This document shows, piece by piece, positions 18,422-63,994 of a DNA stretch of 64,000 bases; position 1 is the stretch's first letter; every line of letters starts with the position of its first letter. The DNA is taken from contig CAXHJY010001531.1 in NCBI GenBank assembly GCA_964016885.1, positions 22,285-86,284 of the forward strand. The letters are read 5' to 3'. Below the pieces are notes generated by a model. It saw nothing but the letters and a program-made list of their open reading frames with translations, made no database searches and was not told the origin of the DNA. This DNA comes from Eledone cirrhosa. Lineage: Eukaryota. The translations under genes and the position numbers were made by a program.

Positions 18422-18605
18422 TATAATTAGTTACAACAGTTATATATACAGGTACTTAAGTTTGTTGGGTTATACACCCCAACTCATTCAGTCTGTTATA
18501 TAAGTCATCTTTGTTTATATAATAAACTGAATGAGTGAATGAGTTAGGGTGTATAACCTAACGAAACTTAAGTACCTGCATATGTCACTGTGGTAACTAA
18601 TTATA
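18422..18605. mobile_element. Palindromic Penelope-type insertion with variant hammerhead (CTGAATGA core)
   Basis: Arms ~18422-18501 and ~18516-18605; + arm has gttagg/cctaac stem II, GAAA 18563, palindromic cttaag, GUA triplet; abuts (TA)n at 18602. Confidence 0.6.
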
Positions 18606-18619
18606 TATATATATATATT

Positions 18620-18735
18620 TAATGTATAATAAACAACACAGTATAATTACTCCATTACCCAAGGTTTCTCGAATAGGACGAACACAAGAGACGTCCACAT
18701 TCGTTTGTCAGATGAAGCAATATATATATACTATA

Positions 18736-18747
<12 letters not shown>
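18620..18747 (-). mobile_element. Hammerhead-bearing inverted arm (partner 21070-21197)
   Basis: Apparently exact reverse complement of 21070-21197 over ~125 bp. Confidence 0.8.
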
Positions 18748-18832
<85 letters not shown>

Positions 18833-18877
18833 CTATATATATATATATATATATGTGTCTATATATATATATATATA

Positions 18878-18936
<59 letters not shown>

Positions 18937-18977
18937 CTATATATATATATGTCTATATATATATATATATATATATA

Positions 18978-19018
<41 letters not shown>

Positions 19019-19031
19019 CTATATATATATA

Positions 19032-19092
<61 letters not shown>

Positions 19093-19111
19093 GTGTCTAT
19101 ATATATATAAA

Positions 19112-19150
<39 letters not shown>

Positions 19151-19196
19151 CTATATATATATATATATATATATGTGTCTATATATATATATATAT
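18735..19196. repeat. (TA)n-TGTGTC compound satellite
   Basis: TA runs punctuated by (tg)tgtc. Confidence 0.95.
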
Positions 19197-19197
19197 A

Positions 19198-21063
19198 ACG
19201 TTGAATAACTTTGAATAACTTTGAAATGTTTTGGCCAGTATTGGCCCAGGCCATGTCTAACTTAATAGCACCACCTGGCGAAGTCTTTCAATTCAGGATT
19301 TGGGCACCATGGCCCATTCGAGAAGAGAATTACTGTTTGCGGAGACATATCCGGGTGTGGGTGGTTTGTCCGGGATTACTTGGAGGAATTTGTCCAAAGA
19401 CTTCTTGAATTTTGTGTGGTCAGTTTCTGTTTTGACGTGTCCTGGTGTGATGTTGAAGAGAGCAGGGCCGATTGAGGTGAAATAATTGTGCCGTATTGTT
19501 GTTATGAGTTGCGATTTAGATTTTTGAATGGGACGGATAGCACGGGGCCCAAGCCTTGGGTGTATCTTGAAGGCGATGCCAACATCATTTGGGCAGTGAT
19601 GATGGAACATTTTCCACATCATGCAGATAATATAACGCTCACGGCGACGTTGGAGTGAGTAAAGTTTCAGGTTTTCCAATCGACCCCAGTAGTCAAGGTC
19701 TGACATGCCATCTATCTTTTTCGTGATTGCCCTTTGAGGAGCTTCAAGTTTCATGATACTTTGTTTCGTGTGGGGAGACCACAGTGGACAACAGTATTCA
19801 AGGTGTGGTCGGGCGAAAGTAGAGAAGAGAAGGATAATGGTGCGGGAATCTCTCGACTGGAAGGTTCTGAGGATCCAGGAACACATTCTGCGGGCCATGT
19901 CAACTTTGCTGCTTATATGCGTGGTCCAGCTTATGTTGCTGTCCACGGTTACTCCCAAGTCTCTGATGTTGTTAGATGCCACGAGAGTTTCCCCGGAGGG
20001 AAGGGAGTACGGGAGTTTCAGAGCATCCTCTTTTCCAAAGTGGATCAGTTCGAATTTGTCTTCGTTCAGTAACATGTTGTTCTTTTCTGCCCATTGGGTA
20101 ACAGCCAGTAGGTCTGACTGAAGGCTTATCCGGTCATCCACGCCATTGATGACCTTTTGGAGCTTGGAATCATCAGCGAAAATTTTAATGTTGCTGTGTT
20201 TGATGATGTCAGTGATGTCATTAATATAGATGATGAAGAGAAGTGGGCCCAACACAGTGCCTTGTGGGACTCCACTACTGACTTTGGCTGGGCTTGATTT
20301 GACTCCCTCAACTACAACATGTTGGGTTCTGTTTGACAGGAAGCTCTTGATCCACTGCAGCAGCTTTCCAGTGACACCAATATTGGACAGCTTTCTCAGT
20401 AGAATGTTATGATCAACCCTGTCAAAGGCCTTGCTGAAATCAAGGTAGATAACATCAGTGTTGGAACCCTCTCCCAAGGCTCTCAAAATGTCATCAAAGT
20501 GATGCAGTAGTTGCGTCAGGCAATCCCTTCCATTACGGAATCCATGCTGGTTGGAGTTCAGCATATTGTTACTCTCAAGGAAGTGGGTCATTCGCGATCT
20601 CACCACTCGCTCAAATACCTTAATGATATGAGAGGTGAGATTGGACGGTAATTCACGGCAAGGGATTTGTTTCCCTTTTTGAAAACTGGGACAACAGACT
20701 GGGATAGAAGGTTTTCTGGCACATATCCAGCATCCAGTGAGTTCCGCCACAGATTGGCAAGAGGAGAAGCAAGTTGGTGTTGACACGCCTTCAAGACACA
20801 AGCAGGGAACCTATCGGGACCTACTGCTGAATTATGCTTGATTTCCTTTATTGCCGCCAAGACATCAGGGGCGCCAAACGTTATGTCCGATAAGGTGTAA
20901 TGGGGAGTAACATCGCCGATACAGCCCAGATCGGCCATATCAGGATTGCTGAAAACAGAGCAGTATTGTTTCTGCAGTATCTCACCCATGGTTTTAGCAT
21001 TGTCTTGAAGAGTGCCATTTTCATCAATTAGAGGGCCAACAGTAGAGCCAGTGATTTTGTGTT
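19198..21063 (-). mobile_element. 5'-truncated CR1/L2-group LINE, RT with one frameshift (~20640)
   Basis: ORFs 20600-21112 and 19293-20801: GPDRFPA, PVFKKG..NYRPIS, QHGFR, YLDFSKAFDRVDH, GVPQGTVLGPLLF, FADD, RPHLEYC; tandem ttcaaagtta tail at 19199-19226. Confidence 0.9.
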
Positions 21064-21096
21064 TATATATATATAGACACATATAGTATATATATA

Positions 21097-21170
21097 TTGC
21101 TTCATCTGACAAACGAATGTGGACGTCTCTTGTGTTCGTCCTATTCGAGAAACCTTGGGTAATGGAGTAA
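21097..21170 (+). ncRNA. Type I hammerhead-like motif with G8>A core change (antisense twin 18647-18720)
   Basis: 9-bp stem I ttgcttcat/atggagtaa; CTGACAA 21106-21112; stem II cgaat..ggacg/cgtcc..attcg; GAAA 21149; ccttggg; GUA triplet. Confidence 0.6.
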
Positions 21171-21193
21171 TTATACTGTGTTGTTTATTATAC

Positions 21194-21195
<2 letters not shown>

Positions 21196-21237
<42 letters not shown>

Positions 21238-21375
21238 TATATATATATATATATATATATGTGTGTCTATATATATATATATATATATGTGTCTATATAT
21301 ATATATATATATGTGTGTCTATATATATATATATATGTGTCTATATATATATATATGTGTCTATATATATATATA

Positions 21376-21426
<51 letters not shown>

Positions 21427-21511
21427 CTATATATATATATATATATGTGTCTATATATATATATATGTGTCTATATATATATATATGTGACTATATATAT
21501 ATATATGTGTC

Positions 21512-21542
<31 letters not shown>

Positions 21543-21559
21543 CTATATATATATATATA

Positions 21560-21600
<41 letters not shown>

Positions 21601-21617
21601 ATAAATATATATATACA

Positions 21618-21656
<39 letters not shown>

Positions 21657-21790
21657 CTATATATATATATATATGTGTGTGTGTCTATATATATATATAT
21701 GTGTGTGTCTATATATAAGTATGTGTGTATATATACACTCAAACATATATATAGACACACACATATATATATCATCATATATATATATAT
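21196..21790. repeat. (TA)n-TGTGTC compound satellite
   Basis: Same unit and polarity as 18735-19196. Confidence 0.95.
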
Positions 21791-22573
21791 CATCATCATT
21801 TAACGTCCATGTTCCACGCTTGCATGGGTTTGGACGGGAGTTTTCCCACTTGAGGCAAGAGTGGTTGTCTTGCTCGCATAGGACTGTCTATGTTTCTACA
21901 GCTGGAGGCCCTTCCTAACACCAACCACATTTACAGTGTGGGGCTGGCAGGTTCTTACCGTGTTGCCTACACGGCCACATTACAGCGTGGACTGTGTGTT
22001 TTTTTGTCGTGACACCTACACGATCTCATTTGTTTTGGCCTGGATGTTGTGGCACCAACATAACTTTACATTGAAAGGGGCGGTGTGGATGGGGTGGGGG
22101 TGGTGGGACGGGGGTGTATTTTGTTAGAGATGCCTACTGACTGTAGTAGGTTTTACTTTGTATTTAGGTAAGGCGGGTCTTCTCTATTACTGAGTACCGC
22201 CAAAGATCTCGGTCCAGTGACATTGTCTTGGAGAGGTATAAGTGTGTGAGGTCGGAATTTATCAGGTCGTCCCAGGTTTTTCTGGGTCTGCCTACTCCGT
22301 GGCTACCGTCTATCTTTATTGCCCTGCACTTTTTTATACAGCTGTCATCTTTCATGCGCATCACGTGACCATACCAACGTAGCCTTCTCGTGAGTAAACA
22401 ACATCTGATCCCTCTTATTTCTAATTTTTCCCTTAGTTCGTTTATGCTTTGCCGTTCACGTATTTTACTATTACACATCCAGCGGAGCATGCAAGCTTCG
22501 TTCCTCTCTAGTCTGCATATATCCTCTGCACACAATGCCCAGGTCTCACTGCCATGCAACATTGCTGTTCATA
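21789..22573 (-). mobile_element. RTE LINE 3' fragment, same family as 28249-31010, inverted
   Basis: ORF 22164-22562 ([11 protein letters not shown]...[12 protein letters not shown]...EKTRLT) nearly identical to the C-terminus of ORF 28498-30615; 3' UTR and (gat)n tail present. Confidence 0.9.
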
Positions 22574-22682
22574 CATATATATATATATATATATATAGAC
22601 ACATATATATATATATATATATATAGACATATATATATATATATATATATAGACATATATATATATATATATATATAGACAC

Positions 22683-22713
<31 letters not shown>

Positions 22714-22800
22714 TATATATATATATATATAGAGAGACACATATATATATATATATAGACACATATATATATATATATATATAGACACATATATATATAT
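22571..22800. repeat. (TA)n-GACAC compound satellite (opposite polarity)
   Basis: TA runs punctuated by gac(ac). Confidence 0.95.
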
Positions 22801-22807
22801 TTTTTTT

Positions 22808-23365
22808 AATTTTCTTATTTTACGTCTTTCATATAATTGTTCTGCATCCCCCTGCATAGAACCACAAAGGTACTAAGACATAACATATATATTTGCTAAC
22901 ATGGGTGTACATCTGTACACATATGTTGGTAGATGTACTAATTCTCTATATTTATCTCCAAATTATTTGTTGAGCAAAACTTGCCAAAATTTACTGCTGA
23001 TTCATGGTAGTAGTAGGCTCTTGTCATAATACCACCCCGCTCCTAACTGATTAACCTCAGTGTCACATGATTGATTCTTTAGAATCTGCCACTGATCAGA
23101 GGCAGTGAATATTTTCAGTGCTCCGGAATTTAGTCCTCGCTAGCTTTATTCCATCCACTGAATTATTATTATTTTTATATGGGTTCCTAGTGTCCGCGCA
23201 TCGCCTGGGAACTTAGCTGAGAATAGACTCCCTGATGACGTAAGGAATTCTCTATAGTTATATTATGTAACTATATTTATCCCCTTACAGAAACTAATTA
23301 GTTGGAGTGAAAATTTTAGTAAGTAGATTTTTAATTTTTAAAATTTTCTTATTTTACGTCTTTCA

Positions 23366-23369
<4 letters not shown>
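22808..23369 (+). mobile_element. ~560 bp non-coding hammerhead-containing unit bounded by 28-bp direct repeats (PLE-derived or retrozyme-like)
   Basis: aattttcttattttacgtctttcatata at 22808-22835 and 23342-23369; no coding capacity; hammerhead near the 3' end. Confidence 0.65.
23227..23308 (+). ncRNA. Type I hammerhead ribozyme
   Basis: Stem I actcc/ggagt; CTGATGA 23232-23238; stem II gtaagg/ccttac with inner hairpin tatagtta/taactata; GAAA 23290; palindromic ctaattag; GUU triplet. Confidence 0.8.
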
Positions 23370-23870
<501 letters not shown>

Positions 23871-24946
23871 CTAAGGCGGGTAAAATTCAAGAGATCCATG
23901 GACGAGTTCTCTCCAGCGGTCTCTGTTCCTCATTATCGCTGCCATGTCCTGCATCTCCAACAGACCAGTGTCTGTCCTTAGGGCATCAACATACGTTAAC
24001 TTTGGTCTTCCTCTTCTAGTGTGTCCATGTAGGGGCTCCCACAGGAGCACTGAGTGCAATGTCAACTCTGGATGTCGGTGAGCATGTCCAGCCAACCTCA
24101 GTCTCCTCTGTGTCACTTTTGAGCTGACTTTTGGGATGCTCCCATACAGCTCTGAGTTTTTCATCCTCAGTGTATACTGATTAATGTTCAGAGCCATCCT
24201 CAGCATTCTCGTGTAGCACCCATCCACCATCTGAGTGAGTTTCTTGGTCAGTGTCCAAGTCTCAGACCCATACAGCAGCACAGACTCCACTACAGCAATG
24301 AAGAGGCGGATTTTCAGATCTCTACGAAGGTCCGACTTCCACACCGATCTCAAGCTGTGGCACGCCGCCCAGGCCTTTCTCTTCCTCTCAACCACATCAT
24401 CTTCCGTATTCCCAATCTTTGCTCCCAAATACAGGAAGTCCTCAACCAATTCCAGCAGCTTCCCGCCTACATTAGTGATCCCCTCTGGCTTCTCAACATT
24501 CTCTACCAGATATTTTATTTTAGTCTCATTCATTCTCAGCCCCACACTCATCGACACAGTCTCAACCTCCCGCATTAAATCCTCTGCCTCCTTCACTGTA
24601 TTTGTCACCAAAACTATGTCGTCGGCAAATTCAGCATCTGATACCTTTTTCGCCCTAACTCTCCTGCTCTGAGCCGGTGCTACAGTAAAGCCAGAGTCCT
24701 GATGTTTCTCCAGTGCAAGGCGCATACAATAGTCCACTACGATGATGAAAAGGTAGGGACCCAATGTATCTCCCTGGAGCACTCCAGCCAGTATCTCAAA
24801 GAACACTGTCATCCCATCAGGTGTAATGACTTGGGCTTTGGTGTTGGTGTAGAGCAGTGATATCAGGTCCACTATCTTCTTGGGGATTCCATAAGCCTGT
24901 AAGATCTTCATCAGGCAGTAACGGTCCACAGAATCAAAGGCCTTCA
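23871..24946 (-). mobile_element. RTE-clade LINE fragment (second family), open RT C-terminal part
   Basis: Last ~358 aa of ORF 23871-28385: [53 protein letters not shown]. Confidence 0.9.
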
Positions 24947-24959
24947 TATATATATATAG

Positions 24960-25006
<47 letters not shown>

Positions 25007-25215
25007 TATATATATATATATATATAGACACATATATATATATATATAGACACATATATATATATATATAGACACATATATATATATATAGACACATATA
25101 TATATATAGACACATATATATATATATATAGACACATATATATATATATATATAGAGACACATATATATATAGAGACACATATATATATATAGAGACACA
25201 TATATATATATAGAG

Positions 25216-25256
<41 letters not shown>

Positions 25257-25405
25257 TATATATATATAGACACACATATATATAGACACACATATATATA
25301 TAGACACACACAAATATATATATATATAGACACACACACATATATATATATATATAGACACACATATATATATATATATATAGACACACATATATATATA
25401 TATAG

Positions 25406-25452
<47 letters not shown>

Positions 25453-25467
25453 TATATATATATATAG

Positions 25468-25514
<47 letters not shown>

Positions 25515-25569
25515 TATATATATATATAGATATATAGACACACATATATATATATATATAGATATATAG

Positions 25570-25664
<95 letters not shown>

Positions 25665-25753
25665 GACACATATATATATATAGACACATATATATATATA
25701 TATAGACACATATATATATATATATAGACACACATATATATATATATATATAG

Positions 25754-25838
<85 letters not shown>

Positions 25839-26326
25839 TATATATATATATATAGACACACATATATATATATATATAGAGACACATATATATATATATA
25901 GAGACACACATATATATATATAGAGACACACATAATATATAGACACATATATATATATAGACACATATATATATATAGAGAGACACATATATATATATAT
26001 AGAGACACATATATATATATATAGAGACATGTATATATATATAGAGACACATATATATATATATAGAGAGAGAGACACACACATATATATATATATAGAG
26101 AGAGAGACACACATATATATATAGAGACACATATATATATATAGAGACACACATATATATATATAGAGACACATATATATATATAGAGACACACATATAT
26201 ATATATAGAGACACACATATATATATATAGAAACACACATATATATATATAGAGACACACATATATATATATAGAGACACACATATATATATAGAGAGAC
26301 ACACATATATATATATATATATAGAG

Positions 26327-26397
<71 letters not shown>

Positions 26398-26486
26398 TAT
26401 AGAGACACACACACATATATATATATATATAGAGAGAGAGAGACACACATATATATATATAGAGACACATATATATATATAGAGAG

Positions 26487-26519
<33 letters not shown>

Positions 26520-28108
26520 GACATATATATATATATATAGACACATATATATATAGAGAGACACATATATATATATAGAGACACATATATATATATATAG
26601 ACACACATATATATATATAGAGACACATATATATATATATAGAGACACATATATATATATAGAGACACATATATATATATATATATAGACACATATATAT
26701 ATATATAGAGACACATATATATATATATAGAGACACATATATATATATAGAGACACACATATATATATATAGAGACATATATATATATATAGACACACAT
26801 ATATATATATATAGAGACACACATATATATATATAGAGAGACACATATATATATAGAGAGAGACACACATATATATATATAGAGAGACACACATATATAT
26901 ATATAGAGAGACACACATATATATATATAGAGAGACACACATATATATATATAGAGAGACACACATATATATATATAGAGAGACACATATATATATATAG
27001 AGACACACATATATATATATATAGACACACATATATATATATATAGACACACATATATATATATATAGACACACATATATATATATATAGACACACATAT
27101 ATATATATATAGACACACACATATATATATATATATATAGACACACATATATATATATATATATATAGACATATATATATAGACACATATATATATATAT
27201 AGACACACATATATATATATAGAGACACATATATATATATAGAGACACATATATATATATAGAGACACATATATATAGAGAGACACACACATATATATAT
27301 ATATAGAGACACACATATATATATATAGAGAGACACACATATATAAATATAGAGACACACATATATATATATAGAGAGACACACATATATATATATATAG
27401 AGAGACACACATATATATATATATAGAGAGACACACATATATATATAGAGACACATATATATATATATAGAGACACACATATATATATAGAGACACATAT
27501 ATATATATATAGAGACACATATATATATATAGAGACACATATATATATATAGAGAGACACATATATATATATATATAGAGACACATATATATATATATAT
27601 AGAGACACATATATATATATATATAGAGACACATATATATATATATATATATAGAGACACATATATATATATATATAGAGACACATATATATATATAGAG
27701 AGAGACACATATATATATATAGAGAGAGAGACACACATATATATATATATAGAGAGACACACATATATATATATAGAGACACACATATATATATAGAGAG
27801 ACACACATATATATATATAGAGACACATATATATATATAGAGACACACATATATATATATAGACACACATATATATATATATATAGAGACACATATATAT
27901 ATATAGAGAGAGACACATATATATATATAGAGAGAGACAGACACATATATATATATAGAGAGACACACATATATATATATATAGAGACACACATATATAT
28001 ATATATAGAGAGAGAGAGACACACATATATATATATAGAGAGACACACATATATATATAGAGACACACATATATATATATAGACACACATATATATATAT
28101 AGAGACAC

Positions 28109-28141
<33 letters not shown>

Positions 28142-28177
28142 CACACACATATATATATACATACACACACACACATA

Positions 28178-28248
<71 letters not shown>
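24946..28248. repeat. 3.3 kb (TA)n-GA(GA)CAC compound satellite
   Basis: Direct reading; spacer drifts from gacac to gagacac and gagagagacac along the array. Confidence 0.95.
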
Positions 28249-36345: not shown

Positions 36346-37975
36346 TGCACTTCTGCCATCTTGCTCTAGGCCCAATTCCCCTCCTCACTCTTTTCTGCTA
36401 CACCAGAGCTCTTGTCATTCACTCCCTTTCCTGTTCTTTTTCTTCTTTCTTTCTCTCCTTTTTTTCTATATTTCCCTATTCTTTCTTTCCTTTTGTTACC
36501 CCTTCTTTTTTGATTAGTTATATATACATGTAGGACTGTGTATTGGCAGTATCGGTAGAGGGTTGGAAGCCATATTTTGATGCAGAGTTACGGCCCTTTA
36601 TGATCTGAGTTCAAATCCCGCCGCGGTTAACTTTGACTTTCATCCTTACGGGGTCGATAAAATAAAGTACCAGTCACGCACTGGAATCGATTTAATCGAC
36701 TTTCCCCTCCCCAAAATTGCTGGCCTTGTGCCTATATAAGAAACCATTATTTAGTGGTAAAATAAACTTCTGGGACTCGGCTAGATTTGCCTCCCTTTCG
36801 GGATTACCAGTAAAGTAAGCTTAAAAAGCATGTTTGTTTATCTTGCCGAGACCGGCTACGTAGCCTATTTCGTAAATTTTAATATCATTACAGTGCTTTT
36901 AAAACTCTCGCGTAATTCATTTCACACCCATGCACAAAGTACTTTTATACTCCTAACACATTAAAAACTATAAAAGCTGTAAATCTAACTTTAATTAGTT
37001 TACGATTAAAAGAATTATTCTTTTACAAATTCTAAATCTGATGTTCAGAACATAAACAATCGAGGACGTTTGTTTTAAAGAGCATAACAAATAGAGCGGG
37101 GGGCGAAAAAATGCACTCTTAAACGAATAAGGAAGTCATAGACACTACTTATAGTACTCATAAATTTGAAATAAAAAAAAGAAGGAAAAATAAAGACATC
37201 TTATTTTCTATATATATGCATAATAAAATATGAACCAGCTTGTTTTGGTTTTATTGTCTTGGTTGTTTGTATGAAACCCGGATATCAACTATTGGAAAGA
37301 TTCCCATTCTGAAATCTAAGTTAATAAATTCATTAATTTATTCACGCATTATTTGTATGTGCACGTTTGTTTGTGTGTATGTGCGAGTGTGGGTGTACGT
37401 GAAGGCGTTAGTCAATCAATACACTTGTTCATTCACCAGTGTCTTCAACCATTCGTCAGTTAATATCAAACAATCAATGAGTTCAAATATTAAGTTGGAC
37501 ATATCCAGCAATAGTAATCTACCATCATCATCAGGGACAGGAAGAAACACGCCCACACAAATCTCTGCTGATAAATTTGATCATTCATAGACAACCTATG
37601 ATTACGTTTCTAATAATAACACACGTTTCTAATTCGATATTTCCTGTAAGTATATATATATATATAGTAATAATAATAAATTTGAAGACTAAAATCCAAA
37701 GAGGGCTCGATAAGGATAAATATATATCAAATATATAAGAACCGTAGAGCAAATATTTATTAAAATAACAGATTAAAGTTTAAGCAAAGAATCGCTGCTT
37801 TCACCCTTAACGGGATCTTCTGAAACTAACAAAGTCAATCTGTAAACGCAGAACTGGATATTTCAAAAAACGTTGCAACCGGAGGAAGACAGGAAGACGA
37901 TACTTTGGTTCGTGGAAACGTTCGCTGGCTAAGAACGAGAAAAAACGAATATAATACGTCATTAAAACACTCACA

Positions 37976-39277
37976 GTGGTTAAGGATTTCGAAGTTGATG
38001 TCATCCTCAATGCCCGTAAGTCGGTGATTAATTTCGACGACTCTATTTGGATTAAAAAATCCAATAGTACCCCATTCGACGTGAGTATGGGCGCCAGTGA
38101 TTCTGCGGAGGTTACTGATCTTATCGGCCTTTTCCTTCTTTTCTCTATCAAGGACGAATTCCCCAACGCGGGTGGTGGTTTGTACCGTGACGATGGTCTT
38201 TTGACCATGGCTAAGTACGGATCTCGTGCTTGCGACAGGTTCAGAAAAGAACTCACAGCCTTCTTTAAAGGCTTCAACCTCTCTATACAGGTTGAGGCCA
38301 ATCTCTCGGTCGTTAATTACCTCGACGTTACCCTCAACTTATTGAATGGGTTGTATTACCCGTATAGAAAGCCGAATGATACGCTTAATTACATAAGTAA
38401 GCATTCCAACCATCCTGCCAGCATAACCAAGAACCTAGTAAGAAACGTTTCGTTGAGGCTTTCCCGTCTTTCCACCAACGAGCGTATTTTCAACGACCAT
38501 TCCACTTATTACAATGAAGCTCTTGCTCGAAGTGGATTTGTCGATAAGGTAGCATATACAGAGTACGAAAATAGACCTAGAAGAAATAGATCCCGTCGCA
38601 TTTGTTGGTATAACCCACCATATAATATGGAGGTGGCCACACCATTAGCTAAGATCTTTCTTTCCCTTATTACGAAGCATTTTCTACCTACACATAAATA
38701 TAGTAAAGTTTTTAATAGAAATACTATTAAAATTTCTTACTCTACGACTCCTAACCTTGCACATAACATCACAGCTTCAAATTTAGCTAAACTACCTAGC
38801 CGTAGGAACACGTGCAACCCTGTAGTTAGTACTAACTGTAATTGTAGGAATCGGGTTGATTGCCCCCTATCCTGGAAATGCCTCTCTAGTAACATTGTCT
38901 ACAAATGTAAGGTTGTAACACCCACGTCCCGTAGGGCCTACATAGGGTTAACCGCCAATAGATTCAAGCAACGTCTTTACATGCATACCCATTCTTTTCG
39001 TTATCCTCTAGGAAGGAATATGACGTCACTTTCAGTTTATATCTGGAGTCTAAAAGACAACCACACCCAATATAAGTTACACTGGGAGATCCTAGCTAGG
39101 GCTAGATCGTATAACGGAAATAAAAGACCATGTGACCTCTGCGCCGCTGAGGCCCTGGAAATACTCTACGCTACAGACCACTTCTTAAACAAAAAATCTG
39201 AGGCAATTTCGGCTTGTAAACATAAATTGCACAAAACTTTCCTGTATTACAGCCCCACGTTATACCCTAACGGATAG
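37976..39277 (+). CDS. PLE reverse transcriptase (C-terminal part) plus GIY-YIG endonuclease, Naiad-like
   Basis: FDVSMGASDSAE, GLYRDDGL, NYLDVTL, WYNPPY, CNCRNRVDC (CxCx5C), NIVYKC..YIGLT..FKQRLYMH, CDLC..E. Confidence 0.88.
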   Translation: MVKDFEVDVILNARKSVINFDDSIWIKKSNSTPFDVSMGASDSAEVTDLIGLFLLFSIKDEFPNAGGGLYRDDGLLTMAKYGSRACDRFRKELTAFFKGFNLSIQVEANLSVVNYLDVTLNLLNGLYYPYRKPNDTLNYISKHSNHPASITKNLVRNVSLRLSRLSTNERIFNDHSTYYNEALARSGFVDKVAYTEYENRPRRNRSRRICWYNPPYNMEVATPLAKIFLSLITKHFLPTHKYSKVFNRNTIKISYSTTPNLAHNITASNLAKLPSRRNTCNPVVSTNCNCRNRVDCPLSWKCLSSNIVYKCKVVTPTSRRAYIGLTANRFKQRLYMHTHSFRYPLGRNMTSLSVYIWSLKDNHTQYKLHWEILARARSYNGNKRPCDLCAAEALEILYATDHFLNKKSEAISACKHKLHKTFLYYSPTLYPNG

Positions 39278-40182
39278 TACGATCTATACGTGGATATTTT
39301 ACGTCTCGATGTGGGAGCTAAGTATATGTTTTGTTTATACCTTTACTTATTTGTATAGGTAAGTATATATTATCTGTATGTTTTGTGAAGGCACGTATAT
39401 CTTCTCGTACGTATATTTGATTGTTATGGCGTATAATTTTTTTATATATTCTGGTACATATGGTTCGGCTATGTGTATACGGGAGTTTTGCGTCTGTGTG
39501 AGTATGCAGGTTCGTACGTATGTAGGGCGTGTGTATATGTGTACTTCATGTTTTGGTTGACTTACGTCTCCGAACATTCGTGTATTTACATGTAGGTATG
39601 TGTGTGCGCTTGTTATATACGTATTTATTTATTTATATACGTTTATATAATTATTTATTTATTTGTATACACGCTTACACACACACACATATTTATATGT
39701 GCGTGGTTTTATTTACCTATGGTATGTTTTTGCGTATGCTTGTGTATGTACGTTTCTGTTTGCGTGTATGTATTTATTTATTTCTATTACTTCTGTATTG
39801 TATTTATTTACTTTGTTCTTAACTCCGTAGCGGAGATTCATTCGGTCTCCTAGTTAGAATTAAGTCTACCACTTCTGCTATACCATTTAGTGGTTTTGTC
39901 TTTGCGTGCTATTGTTCTCCACGCTCCACATATGACGTATTATCTTCGTTTTTTTCGTTCATCGCCAGAGAACGTCTCTATGAACCACCTAAGAGAACAT
40001 TAGTCTACGACCTCTTTTATACCATAAACGTGGTTCTGTCTTTGCGCGTAATTGTTTTTCACCGCTCCTATTAATGACGTATTATATTCGTTTTTTCCCG
40101 TTCTTAGCCAGCGAACGTTTCCACGAACCGGGTGCAACGTTTTTTGAAATATCCAGTTCTGCGTTTACAGATTGACTTTGTT

Positions 40183-40233
40183 AGTTTCAGAAGATCCCGT
40201 TAAGGGTGAAAGCAGCGATTCTTTGCTTAAACT
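40183..40233 (+). ncRNA. Type I hammerhead-like motif with CAGAAGA core (antisense twin 37777-37827)
   Basis: Stem I agttt/aaact; CAGAAGA 40188-40194; ccc/ggg stem II; GAAA 40208; stem III gcag/ttgc; CUU triplet; lies in the PLE terminal repeat. Confidence 0.65.
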
Positions 40234-40249
40234 TTAATCTGTTATTTTA

Positions 40250-40292
<43 letters not shown>

Positions 40293-40871
40293 AAAGTATG
40301 TATGTATGTAAAGAGAGATGTAAAATCGTGACAGCTGCGCCAAGAGGTTTCAGCTTGTGTCTCAGAACCGCAGACTCTATTTATATATATATCCTTATGT
40401 GGTTGATGACTGATAAAAAGGAGTACTCAATACGGAAGTAGAGTTTTAATATTCATTTTATTAAGGCTAAATAGGGCCATGAACCAGTGATAAACAGGTG
40501 AAACTGCAGAGTAACAAGATTCACTATTTATCCTTAATAAAAATGAATGTATATAGAAACAACATTTTTTTAAGAGAGGCAGATGTTTCTGTGTGTGGTT
40601 GAGGAGTGCCAATGGAAGAATTGCTGTTAGGCTCTTGCCAACAGGGCCGGAGTTATTTTGCTAAGTGCTACATCTCACTACTTGCTTGAACAGGTCAAAG
40701 TGATGCTTCTTGTCTGCAGAACCAGAGTCGGAATGACCCAAAGAAAAACTTATTTTACTTCACGCCAAGCTGGCTGGTCTCTCCAGGCAACTGATGTCAA
40801 CCGAGATTAAAAAAAGACCAGCCAGATGTCATTCGAGGTGGTGGGGAGGCAGTATGTGCAAAGAGATTGTG

Positions 40872-41215: not shown

Positions 41216-44200
41216 CTAGCAGTTTAGCCCGGCGTTGCTCAGGTTTGTTCATTTGCTATGAAAAGTTACACACAGGTAAACGTGGCTTGAAAGCGAATAA
41301 GCTTATCAATTAAGTGCATAAAGCAGTTGAACCGGTTATTAAAAGTTACGAACCAATTAGCATTTTGGACAATCAATGATGGGTTTATAATCTTCCAATA
41401 GCAAATTTAGCAGACCAAAGTTGCAAGATGGTGGCCCTGATGCCGCTGGGTGTCAGCTCTGTCCGCCATGGGTGACCCTACCAGGAAATAGTTTTCCAGA
41501 CGGCATAGCTCCAATGCCTGCACCAACATCTACAGCACCTCTTTGTAGACGATATTGCGTGTCATCTCTTGAGGAGTGTAAGCAAAAGTCCATTCCTGCT
41601 CCCTACGCGGGAACAGGCAACATAAAGTTGGCCATGGGAGAGGCATGGCTCCCCCAAATGGATGCCCGCCACCGACAATGTTTGCCCTTGTGACTTGTTA
41701 ATGGACATGGCAAAACATGGTCTCACCGGGAATTGGGATCGCCGGAAATCGAATGGGATATCTGATGCCGAGGGGAAAAGGTTCATCCTTGGAATGAAAA
41801 CATTCTCCCGCACCCCGTTACAATGGTGGCCTCAATCAAGTGGGGTGCCAGTGACTTGACGACCATGCGAGTACCGTTTCACTGCTTTGGTGGACGCAAG
41901 TTCCTTATTAGCATAATGGGACAGCCAACCCTAAGCTTAAGAATGTGAGGTGGGAGCCCTGGGGGCTCAAGGGAATTTAATAACTCAACCGGATAATTAA
42001 CGATATCGTAGGGGTCTGACGTCCAGTCGATAGATTTGAAGATGTGCTCTTTACTGGGAATCTTCTCAATCAGCTGCTCGTTAATAAAATTAACCATGGC
42101 ATTTTCGGAGGAAGGATGGCTTTTTCGCTGAGTCAATCGAGGTTTTTAAAGTTAGATGAGACATTAGGAAAAACTGCTTCCCAAAGGTCAGAAGGGCCGC
42201 TCACAATGTTGCACAGGGAGTCGATTGCTATGCCGCCCTTGTCATCTGCAGGGACCTTGCCCTCACCAAGTGCTAAAATGATCTGAGCAAATGCTGCAGA
42301 CATGTTGACACCATGCAAATGAGCACGCATATTTGTGCTCAGGTACAAACTCCTCACCTGGGGCGACAACATGGACGACTTAAGGCAGGCACACACTTCA
42401 TCAGCTCTTGTCCCTTTGGGGATGCAGGCAGCGATTGCTGAAAATCCCATAGGAGCCGTAGAATCCCTAATGTCTTTCCGGTCCTCGTCCAATGCCTCAA
42501 GGGCACCCTTGTGTACCATTGTGCATTCATCCCAAACAATGAGACAACATTTTTTGAGAACCAGAGCTTCGTGTGAGCTCTTGCTGATATTGTATGTTGG
42601 TGTCTCAGTTTTTACTAAATCCAAGGGGAGTTTAAAGGTTGAATGTGCTGTCCTGCCTCCCGGCAGCAAAGTAGCAGCGATCCCGGACGATGCAACGGAC
42701 AACGCAATTTTTTTCTCCTGACAAATCTTAGTGAGAATCAATTTTGTTACAAAAGTTTTTCCGGTACCCCCAGGAGCATCAAGAAAGTAAATACCCCCAG
42801 TCTGATTTTGAACCGCGTCAATGATAGTTAAATAGGCCAACCTTTGGTCCGAAAGAATTTTGGGCTCATTTTCCTCTAAGTATTGGGAAAGAGATTTGAT
42901 GTCATATGCTGTTTCCCGCAACAAATCCGGGACCAACGTGTTAGATTCCTCTCTGACGGCAAGCCATACATCACCAATTCACTCCCACCCATGTCGAGGA
43001 GGGTGTCCTCGATATCAATGAGTGCCCTGTTGTAGATAATGTCGCTGTAACCAACTTCCACTGAAGAATACTGCAGATGAGCCAGGCGCAGGAAGTCCTC
43101 AGACATGAAGTCTCTGTACTTGACCCATAAAGATTTGGGATCACCCAATTCACACTTTTAAAGCAAAATGGCAAAGAGTTCCTGTAGACTTTTAGGTGAT
43201 TTCAACAAAGTTCCCTCTACTAAAGTGGAATCCCATTGCGAATCATCTTCCAAAAGACCACGCTTAAAGCAGGCTTCCCGGTACGTATCACATATTTCTC
43301 CATCAACAGTTTTGAGGTCCTGAAAACTTTGTGGGCCTACAACTTCATGCAGAAGAAGGCGGAGATGAAAGCACTCATGCTGACTTGGGGGCACAGTGTA
43401 AACCCTTCCAAGACAGCTGTCAAATTTTACACCAGGATGTCTTTCAACAGCCTGACCTGACTTTCTTCACACCCAAGTGTTTTTCGCCCATATAAAGAAG
43501 GATCGAACCTGGGGGTACACAATTGTTTGTGCAAATGTATCGAACTGGCAAAGTTTGAAGGAACCCGTCAGAGTGGTCTCTTTCGGATCGGTGGCCAACT
43601 TGGCGGCGGTTTTGTCCGTAAAGTAAACCCTTTGCCCATTTTCCAAATGTACCACAAGCTGTATGATGGCGGGGTGCCGTTGGTGTAGGGGTAAACCAAA
43701 TAGGCGCCAAAAAGCTTCATTGCTACTGATGTACCGCCCCGCCAGGTATTGTGTGACCTCGTCCCTGCTATTTTCAGCTTGAAATGCGAACATTGCGGCA
43801 TCAGAGCCCTTATTTACATATTTGCATATGTATTTTATCGACTTGACCGAGTTGCAAAACTCAACGTTGATGTGGGCGTTGAACATCTTCAAGAGAAGCG
43901 GGCAGTAAGGCACCACCCATCTATTGTCGACTTGACCTCCCTTTATTGTTGTGGTGAAGCCACTGTTTTCGGGCCATCTCTGCCTGTACAGGGGGTACCC
44001 ATCGCCACCAGTCTGAGTCTCGTCAACAAATTTTTTTGGGTGTCCCTTACTGCACGACCCCCCTTTCAGATACGTGTGATGCTCATTAGGACCCGACGCA
44101 CACGGACCATGTTAGCTTTGACGATGTCATGTAATTCCTGGTCAGTTGCTGGGTTAGGGATTTCAGCTGAAATGAAGCTGTTTATGGCATTTTAATTGAT

Positions 44201-44765: not shown

Positions 44766-45389
44766 TAAATAAACATTTAGAAAGCCAACACACTGGCAGG
44801 TAACACCACCAGGTGGTGCCTGGCAGATGCAAGGGGGACAATCGTCGATGCATTTCAAACTCAACTGGTTCTCGTCAGGATGATCTCTCCCACTTTTGCA
44901 ACTGCCGGACTTTGAAAACTGGCGAAAATATATAGTTTTTTCATCTGTGTAAATAAATGAGGTGACTGATCTCATTTGCATATGAAGTTATCTATCTATC
45001 TATCTATCTATCCACCATCATCATCATCATTTTATGTCTGCTTTTTCCCTGCTTGCAAGGGTGGAACGGGAACTGATTCTGGCTTGATTTCTACAGCTGG
45101 ATGCCCTTCCTAACACCAACCTCATTTACAGTGAGTGCTGGGTGCTTTTTTGCCGTGGCACCTCCACGACCACTTTGCAGCTGAGTAAACTGGAGCAATG
45201 TGAAATAAAGTGTCTTGCTCAAGGAAACAATACATCACCCGGTCTGAGAATTGAACTCACAACCTTTTGATTGCAAGGCCAATGCTCTAACCACTAAGCC
45301 ATGCTTATAATATATACGTATGTAGTTGACGGACGAGCGAAAAGAGTACTCAAATGAATGTGTGTGTGTGTGTATATATATTCTTTGGG

Positions 45390-50369: not shown

Positions 50370-51220
50370 GCTCTAGAGAAGAAGTTGATAGCTTCTGTTA
50401 GCTAGGTGACCAACTTAACAGTGGAGGAGATTGCTCTCAAAATATAGTAGCTAGAATAAGAATAGGCAAAAAAAAGTTCAGGGCATTACTACCCTCGTTG
50501 ACAGCAAAACTTTTATCTTTATGAACAAAAGGGCAGTCATATGATGCATGAGTGTTAAGTGCAATGTTGCACGGAAGTGAAACAAGCAGTAAATACAGAA
50601 GTTATATGAAGGCTAGAAATAAATAAAGTGAGCATGCTTTGATGAATAAGTGATGTTAATGTACACGAATGGCTAAGCTGTAAGAAAAATTGTGTATAAC
50701 AGAAATCAAATGTAGTTTGCAAGAGAGAAGTTAGTGCTGGTATAGATGATTGTTGGATGAAGAAGTTTCAGGAGGTCCCAGTGGAAGGAAGCTGCAGTAG
50801 GAGGAAGGCCAAGAAAATCTGGTCAGAAGGAGATGATGGTGAGAAGCTGCGCTGGAAAAGACCCATTCAACCTACACCAGCACAAAAAAAAAAACAGAGA
50901 TAAAAAAGATGATGAAGATGGTGATAATTCAATACAATATACCATTTAAGTGGAATCTGAGGTGGCGTGCAGGAGAAAAGACATGTGAGGCATACGGATG
51001 ATGATCGATGGGTGAAGAAGTGCCAGGATATGCCAGTGAAAGGAAGCCGCAGTAGCAGTAGACCAAGAAAAATCTGGATAGAGGTGGTGAAAGCTGATCT
51101 CAAATCACTGAGACTCACAGAAATGAAACACGGTCAGTGGAGAGATGCCGTGATAAGAAGGACCCACCCAACCCATGTTACGTGGAAAAATGAACGGAAA
51201 AATGATGTTGATGATACCAT
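50370..51220 (+). mobile_element. Decayed RTE 3' fragments (two tandem ends)
   Basis: gatagcttctgttagctaggtgac, cacggaagtgaaac, RPRKIWIEVVKADLK, cccatg..cgtggaaaaa..gatgat tails. Confidence 0.7.
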
Positions 51221-52133
51221 GTATAATTTACCTGTAACTCTAAGACAAAAATAATTATTTAGATGTCGGTTGATTAACTTTCAACATTTTGTAACGATTT
51301 AGCAGAAAATATCTAAAAACTCATTTGTTAATTCAAATGTTTATTGTATTTGTACTACTGGATGGTTCAATATGAACATTTGCAGTTAACTACAAACTTT
51401 AATTTTTACTGTGACGCAATTATACGGCCGATTTGTGCTTTTCTAGAATATCTTGCTAACGTGGTTTCATGTGGTACAGGACATTAAGAATTAAAGTTAT
51501 GTGCAAGTTATGTAAACATTATGAGTTAGTACATTCAGCTGGAACTATATCAAAACAAACAATGAATTTTTAACCATAAATATACATGATGAATTTCAAC
51601 TGTATAACTATTGTTATACTGCAAATAGCAAATGTGTTCAGACGCTTTCAACAATGAGTGTCCCTGTGGTTCGATCAACATAACAGTCTGTTCATGAAAT
51701 TAACATATAAATAGCCAAGCATTCCACAGACACATGTACCCTTAATGTAAATCTGGGCCATTGAATTATGTAATGTTTACGTGAAATTAAAATTTTAAAG
51801 AAAGTTTCCCACCCGGCCTTCTGATGTTTTTAATCAATATTTAACCCAGTCCCTGCAACAGCCATGGGATACTACATCTATGATGGATAATCTGCACAAC
51901 GTCAAGTGCTTTAGTTTTTTTTGCATCATAGTTACCCATTGGTAACTAACATAACATAAATGGTATATATATATGTAGAATAACAATAAATTGTTAAAGG
52001 CAATCCGATAAGAGTTTGCGAAAACAACGTCTCATGGACAGTTTAAGCACACGGTAATGTGTGACTCAACAAGATGTTTACTATGGTGACAATTGTGCTT
52101 GTATTCCTATGTAAATATATCTTGGAGTAATAA

Positions 52134-52344
52134 AAAAGTTAAGAATAACATGGTTGGCAAAACAAACAAGGAAATTTATTTATAGTCTTACAATTGTTTC
52201 CATGGTAGAATTGTCTATAAATGTATTGTAAGTTGATTTTTACTTCTCCAGTATTTAGCAATTTAGAGACAAATCTACCATGGAAACAATTGTAAGACTA
52301 TAAATAAATTTCCTTGTTTGTTTTGCCAACCATGTTATTCTTAA

Positions 52345-52349
<5 letters not shown>
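52134..52349. mobile_element. Inverted-repeat Penelope-type insertion carrying only the 3' half of a hammerhead
   Basis: Arms 52134-52222 and 52261-52349; GAAA-caattg-TA at 52283-52294; abuts (TA)n. Confidence 0.6.
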
Positions 52350-52389
<40 letters not shown>

Positions 52390-52435
52390 TAAAATATGTT
52401 TTGAAACAGTGAGCAGGTTTGAAATTAGAAAATAG

Positions 52436-52760
52436 AATAGCTTTCACCATATTTTTTGACTAAAGAAATTTTAGTCTGATAATGGGGTTTAGAACCCTCA
52501 GATAAATGGAAAAAGATGAGTATTGACGTACATGGAAGTCGAACCCACATCTTTGGTTATCCAGACCACTGTGCTACCATTTACACCAACACATCAGGGT
52601 GATGTATTGGTGTAAATGGTAGCACAGTGGTCTGGATAACCAAAGATGTGGGTTCGACTTCCATGTACGTCAATACTCATCTTTTTCCATTTATCTGAGG
52701 GTTCTAAACCCCATTATCAGACTAAAATTTCTTTAGTCAAAAAATACGGTGAAAGCTATT
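52436..52760. mobile_element. Near-perfect palindrome of two head-to-head tRNA-headed units
   Basis: 161-bp arms (52436-52596, 52600-52760), 2 mismatches by eye, ggg spacer, (TA)n on both sides. Confidence 0.85.
52601..52672 (+). pseudogene. tRNA-like sequence (tRNA-Gln-like layout, non-canonical anticodon loop); antisense twin ~52524-52595
   Basis: Acceptor gatgtat/gtacgtc, A box tggtgtaaatgg, tggt/acca arm with loop ctggata, T arm gtggg-ttcgact-tccat; T5 at 52682. Confidence 0.7.
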
Positions 52761-53779
52761 ATATATATATATATATATTATATATATATATACAATAATT
52801 TTAATGAGACAGACAATTAGATATCGCGTAGGGTCGCTGTTTTCCCCACACTCAATGATTTTACAAAATGTATGTTGCAAGTACGAATTTTTATGTTAGA
52901 CTAGACACAATATGTTACATAGTGGATAAATGGATTAGTGTGGGAACACAAAAAAGACTCCAAACTATAATATAGTTTCGTTTTAGTATCCTGAGAGCAG
53001 CTGGTGCATTAACAAAATACCACACACAATATATATCATCATCATTATTGTTTGACATCCATTTTTCACTGCTTGCAGAGACTGAATGTATCACCACAAA
53101 CAGGTCAGTACCCAAGCAGAGCCTTTGACCTCCAAGTGGGTCGGGGCCTGACATACAATCATGCACCAGATCAAGTGCATTTTACCATGGAACCAACACT
53201 AGGGAGGTTGTCATATCTATGGCACAACTGAAGAGTCCTCATGACTCTTTAGAAAGTTTTGTATGATTGAGTGCCCTTCCTATCACCAACCACTTTACAG
53301 AGTGTACTTATCATGTAGATCACCAACACTAGAGAAGTTGTTGTACCACTGACACTACTAAAGAGTTCTCTCCACCCTTTTGGCATGGTATCTACAGCAG
53401 GGTGTCCTTCATATCGTCAACAACCTTACAGGGTGTACTGGGTGCATTTATCATAGTATTGGCATGAGAAAAGTTGTGAATATTGACTCAACTGAAGCAA
53501 CAATTCAGAGATATCAATACCATTATGATATTTGTTCAACAAATATTTTACAAGGTGTGACTCAATAATCCCAACCATGAAACTTACAAAAGCTAAATAT
53601 TTAAACAAAAATAAATCATGCTGACAGGTCAGGAAACAATTTGGAGTTGTTGGAATTTGATAATACTGACAAAAAAGCAGTAACCTTGGAAACTGCCATT
53701 ATTGGTAAAGTCGACCTAGATCAACAACAATCTTGACCTATGAATAATGAGAAACTATTATCATAGTTTCTCATTATTC

Positions 53780-54640
53780 ATCTGATCGACCTTCGTTATT
53801 TCTATCTTCTTCACCCATTTATTCCTGAGTGTCATGGGGCCAGAGTCCTCAAACACTACTTCCTGCGGGTTCTGTCAGAAGCAACTATCTCCAACTGATC
53901 TGGCTGGATCCCTAGGTGAGACCAGCCAAGCTGGATGTTATCCAACCATGTTGCTCATTGGTTTTGCTTGTATAATCTGTCCAATGATTCTTTTCCGAGA
54001 CATTCTAACAACATGCCCATAGAATCGGAGCTGTGATCTCTCAATGCGGAGAAGTAGCAGCTCTAACTGGAGTGACTCTCTGATCTGAGCTACACACACT
54101 ATCAAGTAATGTTACTCCAAAGACCCTTTGGTTATAGCTATGGTACTGTAAATCATTCCTATCAGTTTGTAGATCCCATCATGGGTGTATGCTCTAAATA
54201 GCTGGATCAAGTATAATCAACCGGAAACATGGAGTGGTCAAACGTGGGTGAAACATTGTATAGAAAAGTTTACAATACAACTGTCATCTAATAAAAAAAG
54301 CTTTCATTATTTTAATGATAGTGTGTGTAGCTCAGATCAGAGAGTCACTCCAGTTAGAGCTGCTACTTCTCCGCATTGAGAGATCACAGCTCCGATTCTA
54401 TGAGCATGTTGTTAGAATGTCTCGGAAAAGAATCATTGGACAGATTATACAAGCAAAACCAATGAGCAACATGGTTGGATAACATCCAGCTTGGCTGGTC
54501 TCACCTAGGGATCCAGCCAGATCAGTTGGAGATAGTTGCTTCTGACAGGACCCGCAGGAAGTAGTGTTTGAGGACTCTGGCCCCATGACACTCAGGAATA
54601 AATGGGTGAAGAAGATAGAAATAACGAAGGTCGATCAGAT
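53780..54640. mobile_element. Tail-outward inverted duplication of an RTE 3' end (325-bp arms, 211-bp spacer)
   Basis: Arms 53780-54104 and 54316-54640; encode LLRIERSQLRFY.HVVRM; related single copy at ~62320-62595. Confidence 0.85.
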
Positions 54641-63623: not shown

Positions 63624-63994
63624 GATATACGATATTAAACAAATGGAAACTATATTTATTTCATTATACATATTTCGGGGATACCATATTAAAAATATGG
63701 CATGCCTTCGTCAGATAAAATACAATATATAAACAGTTTTATAAATAATTTTGACGTACCATAAATATGAGCGACCATTATGTAGGAAGCTGGTTTGGTA
63801 GACTACCAAACCAGCTTCCTACATAATGGTCGCTCATATTTATGGTACGTCAAAATTATTTATAAAACTGTTTATATATTGTATTTTATCTGACGAAGGC
63901 ATGCCATATTTTTAATATGGTATCCCCGAAATATGTATAATTAAATAAATATAGTTTTATAAATATAGTTTCCATTTGTTTAATATCGTATATC
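63624..63994. mobile_element. Palindromic Penelope-type insertion, 1-nt spacer at 63802
   Basis: ~178-bp arms; right arm has a 14-nt internal duplication; hammerhead in each arm; abuts (TA)n. Confidence 0.8.
63882..63947 (+). ncRNA. Minimal type I hammerhead ribozyme (antisense twin ~63657-63722)
   Basis: CTGACGA 63890-63896; long stem II atgccatatt/aatatggtat; GAAA 63928; tatgta; AUA triplet; stem I tattttat/at(t/g)aaata. Confidence 0.78.

Follow-up and report, generated by a model that had tools for sequence, protein, structure and literature searches.

The palindrome at 52386–52792 of the 64,000-nucleotide stretch of Eledone cirrhosa DNA analysed here (hereafter the window) is a real, high-copy, tRNA-bearing non-autonomous element with the insertion scars of Penelope-like elements (PLEs); it works like a retrozyme or the Schistosoma repeat Sm-alpha but is classed here as neither, and it is not a standard SINE. 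On balance, we favor the view that it is a 5′-shortened head-to-head copy of a non-coding unit of ~240–285 nt, a retrozyme-like parasite of PLEs that target (TA)n. That PLEs mobilized it in some form, a hammerhead-bearing variant included, we regard as likely. Each unit runs from a leader through a tRNA-like module and a body to a tail, and the family is multi-copy, polar and (TA)n-ended, occurs in tandem and fold-back forms, and has a 16-nt leader–trailer helix.

The palindrome and its tRNA-like module

An earlier note, made from the letters alone, had described two 161-bp units lying head-to-head 3 nt apart, each opening with a cloverleaf bearing A and B boxes followed by T5, with a 50-bp tail on one side only and (TA)n on both flanks. 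All of these features were recovered in this copy (Table 1). The arms, 52436–52596 (−) and 52600–52760 (+), match at 159 of 161 positions, differing only at 52590/52606 and 52449/52747, and are separated by GGG (52597–52599). Within the tail, 52395–52435 agrees with the family, and the remaining 9 nt are unlike the family's 11-nt end. Because the inversion does not extend into the flanks, a fold-back artefact of the reads is less likely, and the palindrome is confirmed as real. Read support for its junction, a check the note had proposed, came in part: no read among the records listed spans the exact junction, but a sibling junction at the same place is bridged (X1 record 8, 9 gaps; runs are described below). 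The note had also reported neither a TSD nor an RTE tail. We likewise found no LINE-type tail and no LINE 3′ similarity of the element within the window, and no TSD at the palindrome ends, where one is unreadable because the target is a TA repeat.

Table 1. Features of the palindrome, in window coordinates.
Feature	Position	Strand	Remarks
Left (TA)n	52349..52385	.	Likely target microsatellite; common to neighboring palindrome 52130–52353
One-sided 3′ tail	52386..52435	-	50 nt; left arm only
Left arm body	52436..52523	-	Trailer, T5, two hairpins, GAAAGCTA
Left tRNA-like cloverleaf	52524..52595	-	Rfam 41.3 bits; ARAGORN
Junction	52596..52600	.	T(−1) of either arm around GGG; right arm start = −4
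Right tRNA-like cloverleaf	52601..52672	+	Rfam 43.9 bits; non-canonical anticodon loop, variable in family
Pol III A-box-like motif	52608..52619	+	Sequence; consensus as in the accessible text of PMC8969392
B-box-like motif	52652..52660	+	T at C61 position in both arms
Trailer	52676..52691	+	16 nt, contains T5 (52682–52686); complementary to leader's proximal 16 nt
Two body hairpins	52696..52738 (52696–52713, 52720–52738)	+	Folding
GAAAGCTA	52751..52758	+	Hammerhead 3′ half look-alike, palindromic AGCT; 5′ half not found
Right (TA)n	52760..52792	.	Tail-less short arm terminates here

Both arms score as tRNA against Rfam RF00005 (cut-off 29 bits) and are the only tRNA calls that ARAGORN made in the window, as Ser(GGA). 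The cloverleaf has a folding energy of −15.0 kcal/mol, at most 0.6 from the minimum-energy fold. The anticodon loop, CTGGATA, departs from the canonical form (U33, purine 37), as the note had remarked, and loop position 33 deviates in 41% of X9 reads. The long variable arm of a Ser tRNA is absent; U37 and a variable loop of 4 nt therefore indicate that this is not a working Ser tRNA. At B-box position C61, 93% of X9 reads have C, making the family majority canonical. Selection on the cloverleaf was not seen across ten variable positions, six falling in loops and the other four in stems, as taken from 40 of the 79 variant rows. Elsewhere, a weak tRNA-like match (28.5 bits) lies at 45244–45301, within a third SINE-like family. 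The note's structured ~80-bp body held up only locally, in that its two hairpins stand out but the unit as a whole is no more stably folded than its shuffled versions (z −1.27 and −1.39). Rfam miRNA matches over the palindrome all fall under their own cut-offs and reflect the hairpin.

The family in public reads

We aligned four of 11 listed public runs to a reference that covered the tail and the left arm and extended, as a stub, 34 nt into the right arm: X9 (raw RAD reads, organism A), X1 (contigs, organism A), X4 (contigs, organism B) and X5 (contigs, organism C). Since X1 may be the source sample, X9 serves as the independent run. Matches were found in 2972 of 12,467,656 raw RAD records of X9 and 3499 of 17,142,217 contigs of X1, as well as in organisms B (9 contigs) and C (5 contigs), with aligned records 80–100% identical to the reference stretch. 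The family is clearly high-copy in organism A; the reads give no copy number. Motif scans returned no matches in metagenome contigs, viral contigs or prokaryote genomes.

The 3′ end of the family is fixed. At 52395, 315 X9 reads depart from the reference, traverse a common 11-nt end and enter (TA)n (agreement 0.64), and one organism-B contig (X4) likewise runs from the tail end into (TA)n. The inner, tail-less end was not seen to recur at one position among the loose ends listed, a further 314 rows lying outside that listing, over a region where coverage is thinned by AATT RAD sites at 52423 and 52467, at which X9 reads accumulate.

Beyond the tRNA start, a leader continues in three X9 loose-end rows (385, 344 and 195 reads; total 924), 58 X1 contigs and one organism-C contig (X5). 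The loose end behind 52596 opens CCCATC in 385 reads, whereas the third row (195 reads, agreement 0.98) may derive from a single locus. The conserved leader is at least 30 nt long. In the two larger rows (behind 52596 and 52581), its proximal 16 nt are the reverse complement of the trailer, T5 included, and leader variants swap A to G opposite U, which leaves the helix of the tRNA-sense strand intact. Since most reads that reach the start of the tRNA extend into the leader, the tRNA is internal and the palindrome is the exception. The note's description of the element as tRNA-headed thus fails for most sampled copies, in which the conserved leader precedes a tRNA region that in a SINE would stand at the element's 5′ end.

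The notion that copies are usually palindromic fared no better: depth over the inverted stub is ~4–7, against 538 in the adjacent bin, so that only a small minority of sampled copies reach the stub, and summed X1 depth declines toward the 5′ end. Because PCR libraries under-represent perfect palindromes, and RAD covers few loci, the share of palindromes may be higher than the reads show. The GGG spacer equals the last three letters of the leader, from which it follows that the ends are not RNase P cuts. The note had suggested ends defined by RNase P and Z, which this copy does not support; the arms instead begin at −1 and −4, inside the leader, and their 3′ ends lie ~90 and ~140 nt past the RNase Z site. 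A reading of GGG as a non-templated addition by the RT was rejected for the same identity with the leader.

Six of the 15 joints listed (of 21) change strand, one of them resting on a single read start. Two strand-change joints with 3-nt gaps (52525/52529 and 52530/52534) are present in both X1 and X9, and another joint connects 52532 to 52597. From the depth step there, we infer that these fold-back joints are head-to-head rather than tail-to-tail. Head-to-tail tandems occur in three records (X4 record 11, X5 record 16 and the X1 joint from 52576 to 52395), where a tail end upstream of the next tRNA gives units of ~285 and 242 nt with leaders of at most 72 and 48 nt. Family variants over 52461–52562 include internal 51–63-nt duplications and 39–75-nt skips of the body.

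Both arms of the palindrome carry the family-minority letter at four positions, including T at C61 (product of minority shares 0.001), and were therefore copied from one template or one source locus. Their two mismatches, one of CpG-decay type, are consistent with later mutation. Taken with the reads and the (TA)n joins, the arms support the note's central proposal, in that the family is non-coding and non-autonomous, is arranged in PLE-type geometry and ends in (TA)n.

Neighboring elements and competing explanations

About 12 kb from the palindrome, the ORF at 37955–39277 (within 37640–40300) belongs to a 5′-truncated Hydra-clade PLE. Pfam and PDB did not recognize this ORF; we assign it to the Hydra clade because RWK and DKT motifs are present in its homologues (~700 aa), and its own frame contains CxCX5C, CxxC and CxH, the motifs that the accessible text of PMC8557442 gives for this (TA)n-inserting clade. 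The element carries an inverted pLTR and, on one side only, a tail of ~90 nt; (TA)n flanks it at either end, and its hammerhead-like core reads CAGAAGA. Comparing body and tail with PLE 3′ ends, as the note had proposed, yielded no significant similarity among the window's elements, neither to this pLTR (22 of 300 shuffles score equally) nor to four other PLE-type ends.

Several other inverted structures lie in the window, which is rich in repeats. Four of its six structured hammerhead matches fall in inverted pairs (shuffles 0–2), and these four come from 1408–1734 and 18602–18753/21064–21215. The latter two are inverted repeats, 99% identical and hammerhead-bearing, that bracket (TA)-rich arrays together with a LINE fragment encoding an RT. 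At 1408–1734, 18422–18605 and 63624–63994 lie head-to-head palindromes that combine hammerhead motifs with (TA)n and represent three or more unrelated families; a core motif is present in the last, and the first two have a clear one-sided tail. By eye, 18422–18605 and 52130–52353 contain partial or variant motifs. The palindrome 52130–52353, which adjoins the one described here and has the left (TA)n in common with it, retains the hammerhead 3′ half only (GAAA and a palindromic stem III). A PIF1-like helicase with adjacent frames at 42133–44111 is likely a decayed Helitron.

In our judgement it is unlikely that the element is an ordinary LINE-mobilized SINE whose tail is of (TA)n type and whose 5′ end is slightly extended, with this copy inverted and duplicated during or after insertion. 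Such an origin would account for the A and B boxes, the fixed 3′ end and the ragged 5′ ends, and for most sampled copies not being palindromic at the tRNA start. LINEs in the window also abut (TA)n, as at 24946–28247 and 18720–23870, where LINE fragments directly adjoin long complex (TA)/(CA)/(GA) arrays. Moreover, an RTE-like 3′ end at 53780–54640 is inverted-duplicated (325 bp, 99%, around a 211-bp spacer), indicating that the geometry is not exclusive to PLE cargo; a 23-bp direct repeat flanks this locus at either end, and a 42-bp palindrome lies to its left. Against a LINE origin stand the lack of LINE 3′ similarity in the window, the conserved leader of at least 30 nt, the tandems, the several fold-back joints and the one-sided tail. 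Among 36 pieces from three ordinary SINE-like families, in addition, none had a head-to-head twin, the three flagged neighbors being tail-to-tail or internal self-matches.

Slightly less credible again is a true or decayed retrozyme, mobilized by a PLE, in which the part of the leader outside view would supply the CUGANGA half of a type I hammerhead and the tRNA and hairpins would form a large insertion in stem-loop II ahead of GAAAGC. The family does have GAAA followed by palindromic AGCT, in GAAAGCTA, 60 nt from its end, and the other PLE-type palindromes terminate 42–72 nt past their GAAA. The 9-mer GGTGAAAGC is identical in the Hydra pLTR, but it also occurs at 51086 in an unrelated RTE-like end, and the reads of organism C vary within GAAA. 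A structured hammerhead was found neither in either arm nor in the visible 210 nt of the unit, ~18–42 nt of leader at most lying outside view, a stretch that leaves some room for this explanation. The pairing of a distal leader motif, itself a blurred consensus, with the zone ahead of GAAA was matched or bettered by 475 and 545 of 2000 shuffles. Two further candidates were rejected: CTGAGGG as a hammerhead core, its U varying in 52% of X9 reads, and an antisense hammerhead, by inspection and by structured hammerhead search. For the full unit, the evidence on a hammerhead leans negative.

Least likely by some way is a satellite or an element of foldback, MITE or Helitron-like type that acquired a tRNA and multiplies at the DNA level, with no RNA intermediate. 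The palindrome is MITE-like and its TA flanks fit Tc1/mariner-type targets, but the family is polar with a fixed 3′ end and ragged 5′ ends, palindrome centers vary, the two ends differ and palindromic copies are the minority.

Proposed mobilization and relation to known elements

PLE insertions, in the accessible text of the papers describing them, show 5′ truncation, an adjacent inverted copy, partial tandems, a one-sided tail and (TA)n targets (PMC8557442, PMC3846280, PMC11167929). Here we found an adjacent inverted and 5′-truncated copy, a tail at one end, a microsatellite target, and partial or full tandems (three records). The agreement of palindrome, tail, (TA)n and tandems with the signature outlined in those parts of PMC8557442 and PMC3846280 supports mobilization by a PLE. 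An anole PLE, according to the available portion of PMC11167929, cuts AT-rich DNA in vitro, extends both strands and inserts without need for hammerhead cleavage, its tail being the stretch between two RT start sites.

We hypothesize that the A and B boxes drive Pol III transcription starting near −4, just 5′ of the cloverleaf. RNA of the body and tail would arise if some transcripts ran through T5, or if transcription began in an upstream tandem unit, the scheme put forward for Sm-alpha. A PLE RT/GIY-YIG protein, the nearest candidate being that of the Hydra-clade element, would nick (TA)n and prime the cDNA. The inverted arm would be made in the same event, most likely by fold-back across the 3-nt loop, and the tail on one side would correspond, as in the anole PLE, to the stretch that separates two starting points of the RT. 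The tRNA module could then act as the promoter and possibly take on the RNA processing that hammerheads perform in retrozymes. T5 would halt Pol III 14 nt past the cloverleaf; Pol III transcription from the unit, which would need read-through of T5, is possible judging from the motifs. A Pol III transcript from the unit's own boxes cannot include the leader, which counts against our favored explanation. More tentatively, these may be ribozyme-free Penelope parasites that carry a tRNA mimic in place of a hammerhead; the mimic would supply the internal Pol III promoter, RNase P and Z of the host would cut multimeric read-through RNAs to mobilizable monomers, and the leader–trailer helix would be a switch; we hold this extended version to be rather doubtful.

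Two groups of known elements come close. Sm-alpha is a tRNA-Gln-derived, Pol III-type, hammerhead-bearing tandem SINE-like repeat in which an upstream unit is thought to transcribe the next, in the accessible text of PMC6765202 and PMC2770079. Like Sm-alpha and Sj-alpha of Schistosoma, the family described here has, within a unit a few hundred nt long, a tRNA-derived promoter of Pol III type and is both tandem and dispersed, a likeness of description. Unlike Sm-alpha, which has an active hammerhead, none was found here, and the inverted PLE-type insertions, one-sided tail and (TA)n ends of our family do not figure in the available accounts of Sm-alpha. Retrozymes are proposed PLE-dependent SINE-like elements (PMC7229834, PMC7761336, PMC4209133, PMC8969392, bioRxiv 10.64898/2026.07.22.740005, each as far as its accessible text goes). 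Animal non-LTR retrozymes, as outlined in PMC7229834 and the bioRxiv report, are likewise short and non-coding, occur as tandems or monomers, and have been proposed to move by means of PLEs. However, the same partial sources define retrozymes by a type I hammerhead per unit and similarity to the pLTR, neither of which is shown here, and the unit described here has a tRNA module.

The family further resembles Hydra and Naiad PLE insertions and non-autonomous Chlamys (MRC1), as portrayed in the portions available, in its 5′ truncation, inverted copy, tandems, tail and (TA)n. It differs in having no RT/EN ORF, no 3′ similarity to an autonomous family among the window's elements, and a tail of 41–50 nt compared with the 30–40 nt given there for PLE insertions. 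With tRNA-derived SINEs, as characterized in the accessible part of PMC8969392, it has in common A and B boxes in a tRNA-derived region and a non-coding body. It departs from them in the leader before the tRNA, the T5 after it, the lack of a readable TSD or LINE tail, and the tandem and inverted forms.

The note had ventured that such an element could be undescribed. Sm-alpha and the retrozymes partly anticipate it, but searches of the literature accessible to us, which covers neither most subscription papers nor Repbase/Dfam nor the octopus repeat library, turned up no tRNA-bearing, hammerhead-free PLE-type element. Nor does the available text of mollusc and butterfly repeat papers (PMC13282606, PMC8967140, PMC10294476, PMC6685494) mention such a family, though the Zenodo library of PMC13282606 may include it under an automatic label.

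SINEs are defined as partners of LINEs, and the known parasites of PLEs are marked by hammerheads. A Pol III/tRNA family with PLE scars would extend both definitions. If the ribozyme-free tRNA-mimic version is true, this class would form a lineage of SINEs dependent on PLEs rather than LINEs, and one that may have originated repeatedly across animals. The element would also offer a short natural RNA with which to learn what a PLE protein recognizes in trans, and how inverted arms and tails form.
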